Below are positions 31,060-34,652 of a stretch of 64,000 nt of DNA, piece by piece. Below the pieces are notes generated by a model. That model saw only the letters and a list, made by a program, of their open reading frames with translations, was not told where the DNA came from and searched no databases. The stretch is from positions 824 through 64,823 of the forward strand of contig JAOAEA010000015.1 in NCBI GenBank assembly GCA_026417035.1, given 5' to 3'. Position 1 is the stretch's first letter. The number at the start of each line of letters is the position of its first letter. The DNA comes from Burkholderiales bacterium. Lineage in GTDB: Bacteria; Pseudomonadota; Gammaproteobacteria; Burkholderiales; SG8-39. Both the position numbers and the translations under genes were made by a program.

Positions 31060-33189
31060 TCACGCTGCCGCCGTCGCCTTCGCCCCGTCCGGCTTCGCCG
31101 CCGCCCGCTTGCGCGGCCCCGCCGCGCGCGGCTTCCCGGCCGCGGGCGCCGCCGCGGCCGCCTTCGCCCGCGCCGCGAGCGCGAGCTTGCGGACCTTCGC
31201 GATGTCGGCGTCGGTGAACGGGCCGTTCACGCCCGAAATCGCCGCGAGCTTCATGCCGTGCTTCAGGCCGAGCTTGTAGATCTCGCGCACCTTCTCCCAC
31301 TCGATGTTGCGGCCGACGGTGTAGTTCTCGAACCGCCCCTCGAGCGCGAGCACGATGGTCTCGGCGAGGCACGCGTAGGCGACGCCCTTCGGCAGGCCGA
31401 TGTTCTTCATGCGCACCTTGCCCGGCAGCTGGATCTCGCCCGACTCGATCACCAGCACGTCGGGGCGCTTGGCCACCTCCTCGGGCGGCAGGTCGAGCGG
31501 GCGCGCGACGTCGGTGATGACGCAGCCGGGCTTCACCTTCATGATGTCGAGCACCTTCTTGCCCGCCCCGGAGGTCGCGGTGACGATCATGTCCATCCCG
31601 GGAAGGTCGCGGTCGGCGCGCGAGGAGAGGAAGAGCCTCGCGTCGGGGGTCTCCTTGAGGATGGACTCCTTCAGCGCGAGCAGCTTCGCGGTCTCGGGCG
31701 AGACCATGTAGAGCTCCTCCGCGACCATCGCGAGCAGGCGCGCGCACGCCGAGCCGATCGCGCCGGTGGCGCCGACCACCATCGCCTTGAATTTCACCTT
31801 CTCGCCGTGGTTCGGCCGCGGCACCAGGCCGAGCCGCAGGATCGCGTCGTGCGCCGCCCAGAGGGCACCGGAGGCGCTGTAGCTGTTGCCGGTGGTGATC
31901 GGCAGCGGCGCGCGCCGCGCGACCGTCAGGCCGGCGTCGCCGACGACCTTGGTGAACGCGCCGAGCCCCATGATCTGCGCGCCGAGCTTCTTCGCCATGC
32001 GCGCGGCGTCGAGCAGGCGCCGGTAGGTGAACTCGGGCCCGTGGCGCATGATCTCCTTCGGCGTGCCGCCGACCGAGATGAGCCAGCCCTCGGCCTCGAC
32101 CCCGGTCGGCGACTTGATGCCGGTCACCTTCGAGTAGACGAACGGCGGGGCGTAGGCGAGCGCCTTCTCCAGCGTGTCCATGAGGATCGGCGGCGACACC
32201 TGCGAGAGCACCTCGATCGGCTTCACGATCTTGAAGTACTCCTGCGACAGCGGATGGATCACGAAGGCGAAGCGGTTGACGCGCCGGAACCCGTTCGGGT
32301 AGACGATGCGCGGCTCGAGCTTGAGCGTCTCGATGATCTCGAGGTAGTCGTCTTCGAGGATCTCGTCGGGCGCCTTGCCGGTCGCGGCGAGGATCATGGC
32401 GTCGAGGAGGCTCGGCCCGAGCACGCGGCCGAAGAGCACCGGCGCGCCGTCCACCACCATGTCGACGTTCTTCTCCTTGAACGCCCGGATGCGCCGGTCG
32501 TTCACGGTCGAGGTGACGATCGTCTTGCGCGCGAGCTCCTCGGCGCCGAAGCGGTCGAGCTCGTGCACCGGCGCGACGATCACCGTGGCCTCCCGCATCG
32601 CCCGCCGGAGGGCGAGGCGCGCGAGCTCGCGCAGCGGGATGGCGCTGCGCACCGCGGCGGCGGCGAGGTCCTCGACGTAGTGCGCGCCGCCCGCGAAGAG
32701 CTCGAGGCTCTCGAGCGAGGTGAGCATCTTCGGCACGCCGAGCGTGAGCACGGCGTCGGCGAACTCGATGTTCTGGGTGAACTCGCTCATCGCCTGGGCG
32801 AGCTTGTAGTTGGTGCGCCCGGAGAAGAAGAGCACCTTGGCGTTGTTGAAGTAGTTGCCGAGCTTCGCCTGCACGCGCCGCAGCGCCCACTCCTGCAGGA
32901 TGTCGTTGAGCCGGCCGCCGGTGGTGACGGGCACCTTCGTGGCCAGCCCGACGAGGCGCGCGCTCGCCTTCTCGACGAAGCGGCGCGAGCCGACGGTGTA
33001 GCTGTCCTTCACCACGCCGAGGCCGATCGCGTCGGCGCGGCTCTCCCAGCGGCGGATGAGCCGCTCGGCCTCGGCGGTGCTGCCGTTCGCACCGACGCGC
33101 CGCACGCTCAACCGCTTGCCGAGGAACCGGGCGTCGATCGCGAAGTCTTCCTCGCCCGCGCCGAGGCTGATGCCGACCACTTTCTTCAT
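31060..33189 (-). CDS. two-domain fusion: uncharacterised N-terminal domain plus acyl-ACP reductase (AAR)-like NAD(P)-dependent reductase with an Ala/Lys/Pro-rich tail
   Basis: 709 aa. The C-terminal half carries [40 protein letters not shown] and [30 protein letters not shown]...KHGM. These parallel cyanobacterial AAR motifs, including the catalytic Cys. Confidence 0.85.
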   Translation of the reverse strand: [709 protein letters not shown]

Positions 33190-33249
33190 GGGACCCTCAC
33201 CGAAGGAGCACGGCCCGCCGCGCGCCGGTCGCCCGCGGCTGTCAAGCGG

Positions 33250-33255
33250 ATTCTA
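33250..33255 (-). promoter_or_regulatory. candidate -10 (TAGAAT) for the AAR-like gene
   Basis: attcta on the + strand is TAGAAT on the - strand, about 60 nt upstream of the 33189 start, in the 176-bp divergent region shared with the Fe-ADH gene. Confidence 0.3.
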
Positions 33256-33365
33256 AGGTCGGGCCGGCCGCCGGCTTCGACCTCGATCAAGTTCCGTGCG
33301 CAGCGCCGGCCTGTTCCGGCCGCGCGGTTTCGGGCAAGCTAGCTGCATCGAAGGAGGGGTCGCGC

Positions 33366-34652
33366 ATGAAGGGGATCGAAGTGCCGGAAGCCGTCGGCAA
33401 CGTGGTGCGCTCGGTGGGCCTCGCGACGGCGATGCGCGCCGCCGGGGTGGTGACCGGGATCCTGCCGATCCCGCAGCCGGCGCTCCTCGTCGGGCCAGGG
33501 TCGAGCCGGCGGCTCGGCGAGGCGATCGCCGCGGTCGGGCACCGCAAGGTGCTCGTCGTCACCGACCGGGTGGTCTCGGGCATGGGTCTCGCCGGCGGCC
33601 TGAAGGGCGCGCTGCGCGCCGGCGGCACCGCCCAGGTCGTGTTCGACGAGGTGACGCCGGATGCGCCGATCCCGGTCGTGGAACGGGGCATCGCGGTGTG
33701 CCGGAAGTCGGGCTGCGACGCGATCGTCGCCTTTGGCGGCGGCTCGCCGATGGACGCGGCCAAGGCCATCGCCATGTCGGTCGCGAGCGGCAAGCACCCG
33801 CGCGACCTGGTCGGCTATTTCAAGGGGCGGGGCTCGCCGCTGCCGCTCTATGCGGTGCCGACGACGGCCGGCACCGGCTCGGAGGTCACGGTCGCCGCGG
33901 TGATCTCGGATCCGGCGGCGGGGAAGAAGCTCGTCATCGCGGACACCCGCCTCGTGCCGGAGATGGCCGCGCTCGACCCGGAGCTGATGACCGGGCTGCC
34001 GCGGCCGGTGACGGCCGCGACCGGCATGGACGCGCTCACCCACGCAGTCGAGGCGTTCGTCGGCAAGTGGGCGACGCCGCACACCGACCGGCTCGCCGCC
34101 GCGGCGGTGCGCATGATTTACCGCAACCTCCGCGTCGCCTATCGCGACGGGCGCAACCTCGCGGCGCGCGAGCAGATGGCGCTCGCCGCCACTTACGCGG
34201 GGCTGGCCTTCACCCGCGCCAACGTCGGCTACGTGCACGCGATCGCGCACCAGCTCGGCGGCCGATACCACGTCCCCCACGGCCTCGCGAACGCGATCCT
34301 GCTGCCCCACGTCCTCAAGTTCCTCAGCCCGGCGGTGACCCAGCGCCTCGCCGCGCTCGCCGTGCACGCCGGCGTCGGCAGGTCCGGAGAGCGGCCGGCC
34401 ACGCTCGCGAGGAAATTCATCGCGTCGGTGGAGGCGATGAACCGCGCGCTCGGCATCCCCGGCGCGGTCGAGGCGCTGCGCGAAGCCGACATCCCCGAGC
34501 TCGCCAAGGCGGCGTGCTGGGAGGCCGACACGAACTACCCGGTCCCGCGCTACATGTCGCCGAAGGTCTGCGAGGGAATCCTGCGCGGCGTGCTGCCGGC
34601 GGAGAAGCCGGCCCGGGGCGCACGCGCGACGGGCGCGCGGGCGGCGCGTTGA
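33366..34652 (+). CDS. iron-containing (group III) alcohol dehydrogenase
   Basis: 428 aa: ...VAFGGGSPMDAAKAIA...AVPTTAGTGSEVT...GMDALTHAVEAF...YVHAIAHQLGGRYHVPHGLANAILLPHV. SD gaaggagggg. Confidence 0.9.
   Translation: MKGIEVPEAVGNVVRSVGLATAMRAAGVVTGILPIPQPALLVGPGSSRRLGEAIAAVGHRKVLVVTDRVVSGMGLAGGLKGALRAGGTAQVVFDEVTPDAPIPVVERGIAVCRKSGCDAIVAFGGGSPMDAAKAIAMSVASGKHPRDLVGYFKGRGSPLPLYAVPTTAGTGSEVTVAAVISDPAAGKKLVIADTRLVPEMAALDPELMTGLPRPVTAATGMDALTHAVEAFVGKWATPHTDRLAAAAVRMIYRNLRVAYRDGRNLAAREQMALAATYAGLAFTRANVGYVHAIAHQLGGRYHVPHGLANAILLPHVLKFLSPAVTQRLAALAVHAGVGRSGERPATLARKFIASVEAMNRALGIPGAVEALREADIPELAKAACWEADTNYPVPRYMSPKVCEGILRGVLPAEKPARGARATGARAAR

Follow-up and report, generated by a model that had tools for sequence, protein, structure and literature searches.

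A probable tandem-paralog thioester reductase divergently paired with an iron-dependent alcohol dehydrogenase in a Burkholderiales bacterium

Introduction

Which reaction is carried out by a bacterial protein whose C-terminal half resembles the acyl-ACP reductase (AAR) of cyanobacteria, and what is the domain fused in front of it? The question is raised by a 64,000-nucleotide stretch of contig JAOAEA010000015.1 from a Burkholderiales bacterium (in the following: the window; GC content ~72 %). It encodes a 709-amino-acid (aa) fusion protein and, divergently, an iron-dependent alcohol dehydrogenase (Fe-ADH). An earlier reading of the sequence (the original prediction) had proposed an AAR-like reductase with a separate domain in front, working together with the Fe-ADH. 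Both open reading frames (ORFs), every motif quoted there and the 176-bp divergent spacer were found in place.

Here, our best explanation, to which we give an even chance of being right, is a tandem-paralog thioester reductase plus Fe-ADH that would convert an acyl-thioester via the aldehyde to the alcohol, with the N-terminal half (N-half) as a non-catalytic partner of the C-terminal half (C-half). The reductase chemistry as such is already known; what is new is the tandem-paralog architecture, the unmodelled partner-domain family and the conserved coupling to an Fe-ADH. Literature searches returned nothing on the fusion, the partner domain or the split operon introduced below, in line with the original prediction, which knew of no characterisation of the fusion or gene pair.

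Data sets

Two sets of loci were compared with the window. For the fusion, at least 390 matching stretches were confirmed as relatives in GTDB species-representative genomes, and 80 of these loci were examined. They stem from Betaproteobacteria (Casimicrobiaceae, Usitatibacteraceae, Rhodoferax, Rhodocyclaceae) as well as from marine Gammaproteobacteria (Oleiphilaceae, Hahellaceae, Litoribacillus). In total, the family comprises thousands of sequence clusters. For the N-half, we studied 80 metagenomic loci that encode its homologs as a separate gene (stand-alone loci). The fusion protein itself is 100 % identical to a protein of a Burkholderiales metagenome-assembled genome (MAG) that is named 'dehydrogenase' (P0001).

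The C-terminal half

The C-half carries the motifs FAFVIHP (residues 307-313), GLGAFTKVV (408-416), TTGNSYSA (432-439), GATGAIG (473-479), YACLAE (605-610), GRNIEW (626-631) and KHGM (643-646). When searched with phmmer against the PDB sequences, it finds PigE (4ppm, E=1.1e-28) and AAR (6jzq, E=4.5e-12), and Cys607 is placed on the catalytic Cys in both alignments; the likeness to AAR greatly exceeds chance level. The conserved catalytic Cys claimed by the original prediction is thus confirmed: Cys607 lies on AAR Cys294, and its equivalent is kept in 79/79 fused-family ORFs recognised. Among the betaproteobacterial relatives, the reductase half is 88-90 % identical.

With regard to known families, the NCBIfam PigE model (NF053554) matches with 181.6 bits (E=2.4e-53, model positions 1-364 of 837). 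Its equivalog cut-off of 850 bits is not reached, and the fusion protein has no aminotransferase domain. The AAR model TIGR04058 matches residues 345-647 with 70.2 bits (E=1.9e-19), again without reaching its cut-off (449.7). Since both scores are far below the cut-offs, the fusion protein is a superfamily member outside both named families, and judged by these scores, PigE-type thioester reductases are nearer to its C-half than AAR of cyanobacteria is. That is, the predicted AAR likeness holds at the level of the superfamily (a Cys- and NAD(P)H-dependent thioester reductase outside cyanobacteria), while assignment to the strict AAR family does not (70 vs 449.7 bits).

The AlphaFold2 (AF2) model of the whole 709-aa chain reaches a predicted local distance difference test score (pLDDT) of 86.3 and a predicted template modelling score (pTM) of 0.84; the latter suggests that the two halves are packed in a fixed way. 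Foldseek comparison of this model with the PDB yields AAR (TM-score 0.72-0.77, E ~1e-18) and the AAR-like terminal amidation domain (TAD) of carmabin (TM-score 0.63-0.69), followed by an E-value gap of ten orders of magnitude and nothing comparable thereafter. All marks of the COG5322-type superfamily are present, i.e., the AAR-type fold (N-lobe, Rossmann lobe and a C-terminal helix with the Cys), the invariant Cys, the Thr-Thr-Gly and the Gly-rich loop. Members of this family form an acyl-enzyme on the Cys, carry a GATGxIG loop and hand the aldehyde to a partner enzyme (PMC7089970, PMC8341465, PMC9594044, bioRxiv 10.1101/2024.10.28.620694), and the Thr-Thr-Gly junction motif touches the catalytic Cys in solved relatives (bioRxiv 10.1101/2024.10.28.620694).

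To judge the cofactor, we compared the residues whose roles in the NADPH pocket of AAR have been described (PMC7089970). AAR R189/R193/R314 correspond to Pro498/Lys502/Arg627 of the fusion protein, such that only Arg627, the counterpart of Arg314, is retained and two of three arginines are replaced; Glu499 is found between the two. The respective segment V[S/A]PExAK is nearly invariant across the 80 fusion loci, while the split-gene reductases (see below) carry LVARNxTRL instead. Given the replacement of the arginines that hold the 2'-phosphate in AAR, the C-half probably uses NADH rather than NADPH. For the relative TamH, NADH specificity is known from experiment (PMC9594044).

Seven distant fused homologs keep the two-half architecture without the catalytic Cys, which is replaced by Gly (P0136, P0137), Thr (P0138), Glu (P0149, P0153), Ala (P0156) or Ser (P0179). 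In several of them, beta2 ends in a 'VD' of the classic NAD type. It follows that the two-half architecture is not always a thioester reductase, as the same acyl-enzyme chemistry is impossible in these subfamilies. Neither an ADH nor an aminotransferase gene neighbours the distant fused members P0179 and P0129.

The N-terminal half

No Pfam or NCBIfam model covers the N-half, and a Pfam search at E<=10 with the N-half and three stand-alone members returned noise only. Of the two profile searches suggested in the original prediction, that of the C-half against TIGR04058 thus gave the match reported above, while that of residues 1-300 against Pfam was empty. The label 'quinate 5-dehydrogenase' given there for this domain is used by no source. 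It can be traced to weak matches of PF01488 (Shikimate/quinate 5-dehydrogenase), which fall on the Rossmann part of the relatives' reductase half and not on the N-half.

An exhaustive sequence search identified 634 representative clusters of N-half homologs at E<=1e-3, both fused (~700 aa) and stand-alone (~300 aa). The family motifs S-x-G, R-x-G, DAxGxG, P-x-x-G, D145 and K222 are all present in the window protein. An AF2 model of the N-half, based on a 39-sequence alignment, has a pLDDT of 92.4 and a pTM of 0.89. When compared with the PDB by Foldseek, its highest TM-scores are obtained for AAR (6jzq) and the carmabin TAD, both 0.51. Sorted by E-value, periplasmic sugar-binding proteins come first with TM-scores of 0.27-0.38. 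We rejected a primary kinship with periplasmic binding proteins or ATCase, which have the best Foldseek E-values, because of these low TM-scores compared to 0.51 for AAR; in addition, the protein is cytoplasmic and fused to a reductase.

Is the N-half thus a second copy of the reductase fold? An hhalign comparison of N-half and C-half profiles from 16 fused proteins gives a co-linear alignment over 190 columns (P=6.1e-5), compared to P ~0.3 for reversed-sequence controls. Within this alignment, landmark motifs are paired (among them DAIGLG/QIMGLGAF and PVTTGG/PITTGN), TTG432-434 corresponds to TTG89-91, G473 to F121, G479 to N127 and Cys607 to Ser260. Under the hhalign register, 61 % of positions have the same secondary structure in the two independent predictions, compared to 19-42 % in shifted registers, and both halves have corresponding elements in the same sequence, beginning with the first strand and ending with the last. 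A comparison of the N-half with the split reductases finds the same register weakly (P=0.047).

Several observations weigh against this paralogy. When a broader profile is used, the same register is recovered with P=0.054. Profiles built only from stand-alone N-domains align to the reductase profiles in another register (P=0.18 and 0.11), and the N-domain profile has no match among the PDB sequences at E<=10. The profile evidence is therefore modest, and with the stand-alone-only profiles not significant, it is the fused lineage and the structure that carry the paralogy claim. Due to the weak broader and stand-alone profiles and the empty PDB sequence search, we grade an internal duplication that left the N-half as a degenerate copy of the reductase fold as probable, not proven. 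With both the Cys and the Gly-rich loop lost, the N-half is probably catalytically dead; within the stand-alone family, the position of Ser260 holds an invariant Asn. The regulatory or substrate-delivery domain that was originally proposed is thus not an unrelated one: the N-half is most likely a degenerate reductase paralog that also exists as a separate gene beside reductases.

In the N-half, the near-invariant polar residues D15, R31, D53, D145 and K222 are more readily explained by ligand binding or catalysis than by structure alone, which is a further point against an inert pseudo-subunit. The N-half could therefore be a functional domain that binds an acyl carrier, coenzyme A (CoA) or an effector, or that catalyses a second reaction, such that the protein would be truly bifunctional. 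The listed residues and G91 persist in fused and stand-alone forms, the stand-alone family has many more invariants (including R127, D209, N262 and E265), and Foldseek also matches ligand-binding folds of periplasmic binding proteins. On the other hand, no recognisable catalytic motif or nucleotide loop is present, the parent fold's Cys and its Gly-rich motif have been lost, and the strongest genomic association is that with a reductase. We thus consider a functional N-half rather unlikely, even if about ten stand-alone genes with long flanks lie apart from any reductase gene, e.g., those of L081 and L082 beside genes for GNAT and efp.

The N-half as a separate gene

In 61/80 stand-alone loci, we found a PigE/AAR-type reductase gene as well. 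In 33 loci it is located directly upstream on the same strand; in the remaining reductase-bearing loci it is mostly found within ~2 kb and in some cases directly downstream. The usual operon order is class-III aminotransferase, a 150-aa SRPBCC protein, reductase, N-domain homolog and amino-acid permease (L085-L164; e.g., L143 1-4437, L100 3206-8349). The split-gene pair of L143 occupies 1086-2219 and 2216-3115. The aminotransferase scores 416 bits against the transaminase half of PigE, and the split reductase 194 bits against its reductase half. Compared to the window protein, the split reductase is 34 % identical to the C-half (E=7e-64), and the stand-alone partners are 24-29 % identical to the N-half. 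The stand-alone members carry only the name 'hypothetical protein' in their source.

Since it also occurs as a separate gene beside a reductase, the N-domain is a conserved partner of PigE-type reductases. The association is strong, not absolute, as the ten or so long-flank loci show. The same two components are thus fused in proteobacteria and split elsewhere. By analogy, what is swapped is the enzyme that would consume the aldehyde: the split operons have an aminotransferase, while the clade of the window has an Fe-ADH. The split operon itself can be read as a 'disassembled PigE plus partner', which probably makes an amine from a thioester.

A farther-reaching generalisation is possible, even though we regard it as doubtful. 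That is, the N-half family might consist of widespread pseudo-enzyme subunits that descended from the reductase and are needed by PigE/AAR-type reductases, as a heterodimer if encoded separately and as a pseudo-dimer if fused. They would then control the docking of carrier or substrate, or the hand-over of the aldehyde to the following enzyme, and the betaproteobacterial module would be an NADH-linked path from acyl-thioester to alcohol, non-homologous to AdhE.

Two candidates were discarded. The context of L081/L082 (GNAT, N-domain, efp, accBC) is uninformative; the adjoining 369-aa protein has no Pfam match and is not AAR-like. Within L084 (4940-8200), two neighbouring ORFs encode a 287-aa N-domain and a 370-aa reductase, and the same strand also carries a 244-aa fragment of an Fe-ADH. 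Rather than a split version, this is probably a frameshifted or decaying fusion copy with its ADH fragment.

The alcohol dehydrogenase and its pairing

The divergent gene encodes a genuine group III Fe-ADH according to its Pfam domains, as predicted: PF00465 matches with 158.2 bits (cut-off 31.3) and PF25137 (ADH_Fe_C) with 169.5 bits (cut-off 27). It remains below every NCBIfam equivalog cut-off (FucO 295 bits vs 523, ErcA 287 vs 550) and fits none of the named subfamilies tested (FucO, ErcA, EutG, DhaT, 4HbD and others). Its closest solved structures are methanol dehydrogenase (8zrl, 2.9e-79), DhaT (3bfj), Zymomonas ADH2 (3owo) and FucO, such that it appears to resemble Fe-ADHs that act on C1-C4 alcohols. 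Based on motif and spacing, we located the nucleotide motif GGGSxxD as GGGSPMD (124-130) as well as D222/H226/H291/H305 and VVTD (64-67). By analogy with FucO, we take D222/H226/H291/H305 to be the metal ligands. The Asp of VVTD presumably corresponds to FucO Asp39, which we assume to be typical of NAD-dependent Fe-ADHs.

An ADH ortholog with 64-78 % identity is found divergently and immediately upstream of the fusion in 56/80 loci. The cultured strain Rhodoferax antarcticus ANT.BR (NZ_MSYM01000009.1, L044) is one that has the pair. The other neighbours of the window (amiC, queG, dedA, a ybaK-like gene and miaA) occur in 0/80 fusion loci, and no other flanking gene family is found in more than 8 of them. 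Given that the pair is kept while the other flanking genes differ, fusion and ADH behave as a mobile two-gene cassette. Between them, 56-373 bp are observed in relatives. A k-mer survey of 30 intergenic regions revealed promoter-like TTGCAC/TACAAT hexamers as the sole recurrent motifs, in a subset only, and a sigma-70 consensus scan of the window's own spacer gave no match.

The paired ADHs furthermore share a conserved N-terminal extension of ~30 aa, which reads MKGIEVPEAVGNVVRSVGLATAMRAAGVVT in the window and has the consensus MIEMPGxVGDVVRSVGLSTAMRAAGVVTG among fusion-paired ADHs. Solved relatives from the PDB start aligning to the ADH only at residues 40-43. The extension could be a docking peptide.

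The ADH might also be a mere neighbour without any functional link to the fusion protein. This would fit the 24/80 fusion loci that lack it upstream, although a few of these are truncated by a contig edge, as well as the intergenic region, which contains no family-wide conserved operator. Yet in 56 loci the pair keeps its divergent orientation while every other flanking gene varies, and the paired ADHs share the distinctive extension. We thus deem coincidence very improbable and infer a functional coupling. The predicted pairing is thus maintained in most relatives, while it is absent from the gammaproteobacterial ones, some Rhodoferax and some Rhodocyclaceae. That is, ADH pairing is clade-specific. 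These fusions without an ADH count against a strictly coupled module, as the reductase evidently does not need the paired ADH.

In ADH-less loci, other genes were observed next to the fusion. Four marine gammaproteobacterial loci encode a ~310-aa alpha/beta-hydrolase (Pfam Abhydrolase_1) divergently from the fusion (L064 1656-2597, L065 4603-5535, L068 4799-5731, L072 4708-5670; all minus strand). We take its motifs to be haloalkane-dehalogenase-like. In two Rhodoferax MAG loci (L032 5210-5869, L040 5303-5902; plus strand), a co-directional gene upstream of the fusion encodes a ~200-aa protein that starts with MKLLIFAGSTRLNSYNRRLA and presumably is an NAD(P)H-dependent FMN reductase.

Reaction, direction and substrate

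For the tandem-paralog reductase plus Fe-ADH, we propose the following mechanism. The C-terminal copy would be the enzyme, with Cys607 being acylated by a thioester of CoA or of a carrier protein. The nicotinamide cofactor bound at GATGAIG, more likely NADH than NADPH, would then reduce the acyl-enzyme to the free aldehyde, which the divergent NAD(H)-type Fe-ADH would reduce to the alcohol. The N-terminal copy would serve as a built-in non-catalytic partner subunit, such that a single chain forms a pseudo-dimer; its role may be to stabilise the active half or to contribute to the path by which the substrate enters or the aldehyde leaves. The solved relative TAD, a homodimer (bioRxiv 10.1101/2024.10.28.620694), is in line with such a partner role. 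Of this proposal, the fold, the catalytic motifs, the fused or adjacent partner domain and the gene pair are observed.

Two observations speak against this proposal, in addition to the ADH-less relatives. First, no gene for an acyl carrier protein (ACP), a ligase or another substrate supplier is linked. Second, the direction is ambiguous because both enzymes look NAD(H)-type. The module might therefore run in reverse as a catabolic one: the Fe-ADH would oxidise an alcohol and the reductase half would act as a CoA-acylating aldehyde dehydrogenase, via a thiohemiacetal on Cys607, hydride transfer to NAD+ and acyl transfer to CoA. It would thereby be a non-homologous analog of AdhE, PduP/PduQ or EutE/EutG. 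Such a role is compatible with the replaced NADPH-phosphate arginines (VSPETAK), with the VVTD Asp of the ADH, with NAD-dependent methanol and ethanol dehydrogenases among the solved structures closest to this ADH, and with the location of the module among housekeeping genes, outside any biosynthetic cluster. All characterised reductases of the superfamily, however, run in the aldehyde-forming direction (PMC7089970, PMC8341465, PMC9594044), the aminotransferase partner of the split-gene relatives implies aldehyde production, and no alcohol-uptake or regulatory gene is linked. We thus regard the reverse direction as unlikely.

The substrate clues are in conflict, since the ADH resembles C1-C4 alcohol dehydrogenases while the relatives of the reductase work on C8-C18 acyl chains. 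The original prediction had favoured fatty alcohol, wax or aldehyde-signal production, for which we find no support, as the ADH is close to C1-C4 enzymes and the cofactor pocket departs from the NADPH site of AAR. If the fusion were a long-chain acyl-ACP reductase supplying fatty aldehydes or alcohols for such products, this would agree with its nearest characterised relatives AAR, TamH and PigE, which use C8-C18 chains (PMC7089970, PMC9594044, PMC8341465). Relatives also occur in Oleiphilaceae and Marinobacteraceae, two marine families of oil degraders, and the SRPBCC protein of the split operons is lipid-binding. In contrast, wax synthase, ACP or fatty-acid genes are linked in 0/80 fusion loci, the fusion protein misses the AAR equivalog cut-off by a wide margin, no ADH accompanies the fusion in the marine relatives, and the paired ADH is of the short-chain kind, which renders a long-chain role improbable. 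The absence of a nearby aldehyde-deformylating oxygenase (ADO) was correctly predicted: a tblastn search with one ADO query sequence found no match in the window or the 160 loci, and the immediate neighbours of the fusion in the window were all identified as genes other than ADO.

Comparison with known systems

Compared to AAR (PDB 6JZQ/6JZU; TIGR04058), the fusion protein shares the three-part fold, the Cys position, the GATGxIG loop, TTGN and the Arg314 equivalent; by analogy, a ping-pong acyl-enzyme mechanism with aldehyde hand-over to a partner is to be expected. It differs by an identity of only 22-24 %, two of three replaced NADPH-phosphate arginines, the missing ADO partner, the degenerate second fold copy in front and its proteobacterial rather than cyanobacterial origin.

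The reductase domains of PigE, TamH and KecF, which are fused to class-III transaminases, are the closest relatives in sequence, with matching Cys and Rossmann motifs. They too pass the aldehyde to a dedicated second enzyme, and the fusion may share the NADH specificity of TamH (PMC9594044). Different from these, the fusion has no transaminase domain, and the Fe-ADH as its partner is encoded by a gene of its own. The N-half is without counterpart in PigE and TamH, and the fusion is located outside pigment or alkaloid gene clusters.

The metagenomic split operon (L085-L164) also combines a reductase with the partner domain. Here, each of the two has its own gene, that of the reductase usually preceding that of the partner, and an aminotransferase instead of an ADH would take the aldehyde. 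In contrast to the fusion, its reductase keeps the AAR-type NADPH arginines. The operon appears to be uncharacterised.

The carmabin/vatiamide TAD (PDB 9E4S-9E56) has an AAR-like fold and the TTG motif, and its invariant Cys lies beside the nicotinamide; NAD(H) is the preferred cofactor, and the domain is dimeric (bioRxiv 10.1101/2024.10.28.620694). It is, however, the terminal domain of non-ribosomal peptide synthetase modules, its presumed chemistry is an amidation, its N-lobe is highly diverged, and it is a homodimer rather than a tandem-paralog fusion.

AdhE, PduP/PduQ and EutE/EutG carry out the same two-step thioester/aldehyde/alcohol chemistry with NAD(H) and an ADH of the same Fe-ADH family. 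Their thioester/aldehyde enzyme is a member of the aldehyde dehydrogenase (ALDH) superfamily, with no kinship to the AAR fold, and they handle C2-C3 units in fermentation or microcompartments. The Fe-ADH pairing of the fusion suggests a second, evolutionarily independent solution to AdhE-type thioester/alcohol conversion. TabE (bioRxiv 10.1101/2025.08.11.669332) is an unrelated ALDH-type enzyme.

AAR-type reductases serve biofuel production and amine biocatalysis, and in vitro they frequently show little or no activity. For PigE and TamH, for instance, lysate or cognate carrier proteins were needed (PMC8341465, PMC9594044). A conserved partner domain could explain what some isolated AAR-type enzymes lack, and as a natural two-component scaffold it would be of use in enzyme engineering. 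The only annotations that the family carries are 'dehydrogenase' and 'predicted amino acid dehydrogenase'. Being widespread and highly conserved yet so vaguely annotated, it points to an unassigned step that is common in the metabolism of Betaproteobacteria from soil and wastewater.

Features of the locus

The coordinates of all features are collected in Table 1.

Table 1. Features of the fusion/ADH locus in window coordinates, with residue numbers of the respective protein
Feature	Positions	Strand	Basis
Fusion protein, 709 aa: probable degenerate reductase copy, predicted active thioester reductase, low-complexity tail	31060..33189	-	ORF
Ala/Pro/Lys-rich tail of the fusion protein, residues 677-709	31063..31161	-	predicted disordered
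C-half, AAR/PigE-type thioester reductase, residues 303-658	31216..32283	-	NCBIfam, PDB sequence, Foldseek
Cys607, predicted acyl-enzyme nucleophile	31369..31371	-	aligned to AAR Cys294, PigE Cys296 (PMC8341465)
VSPETAK, cofactor-discriminating segment after beta2, residues 496-502	31684..31704	-	near-invariant in relatives
GATGAIG, dinucleotide recognition loop, residues 473-479	31753..31773	-	aligned to AAR 162-GATGDIG-168 (PMC7089970)
Thr432-Thr433-Gly434, junction motif	31888..31896	-	aligned to solved relatives
N-half, two-lobed alpha/beta domain, residues 1-300	32290..33189	-	AF2 model, hhalign
Ser260, N-half position matching catalytic Cys607	32410..32412	-	hhalign alignment
FFSGRTNYK, degenerate remnant of dinucleotide-binding loop, residues 121-129	32803..32829	-	aligned to GATGAIG
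Thr89-Thr90-Gly91, N-half counterpart of the TTG junction motif; Gly91 invariant	32917..32925	-	alignments
Divergent intergenic region, 176 bp	33190..33365	.	between fusion ORF and ADH ORF
Group III iron-dependent alcohol dehydrogenase, 428 aa	33366..34652	+	PF00465, PF25137
Conserved N-terminal extension of the ADH, ~30 aa	33366..33455	+	paired-ADH comparison

Relatives of the fusion protein align only up to residue ~666, and the length of the tail differs between them. For residues 685-709, the pLDDT is below 50. The tail of P0165 consists of ~170 aa rich in Lys, Pro, Glu and Ala.

An Rfam scan gave no match near the fusion/ADH locus. Two further ORFs of the window have no Pfam match and are not kept beside the fusion in other genomes, i.e., a 255-aa ORF with a Pro/Ala-rich N-terminal half (30182-30949, plus strand) and a 313-aa ORF (37745-38686, minus strand). 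ARAGORN reports a 94-nt 'tRNA-Asp' with anticodon ATC at 18567-18660 (minus strand), which is probably a false positive since the Rfam tRNA model is silent there at its gathering threshold. For the tRNA-Ser at 63655-63744, ARAGORN and Rfam agree.

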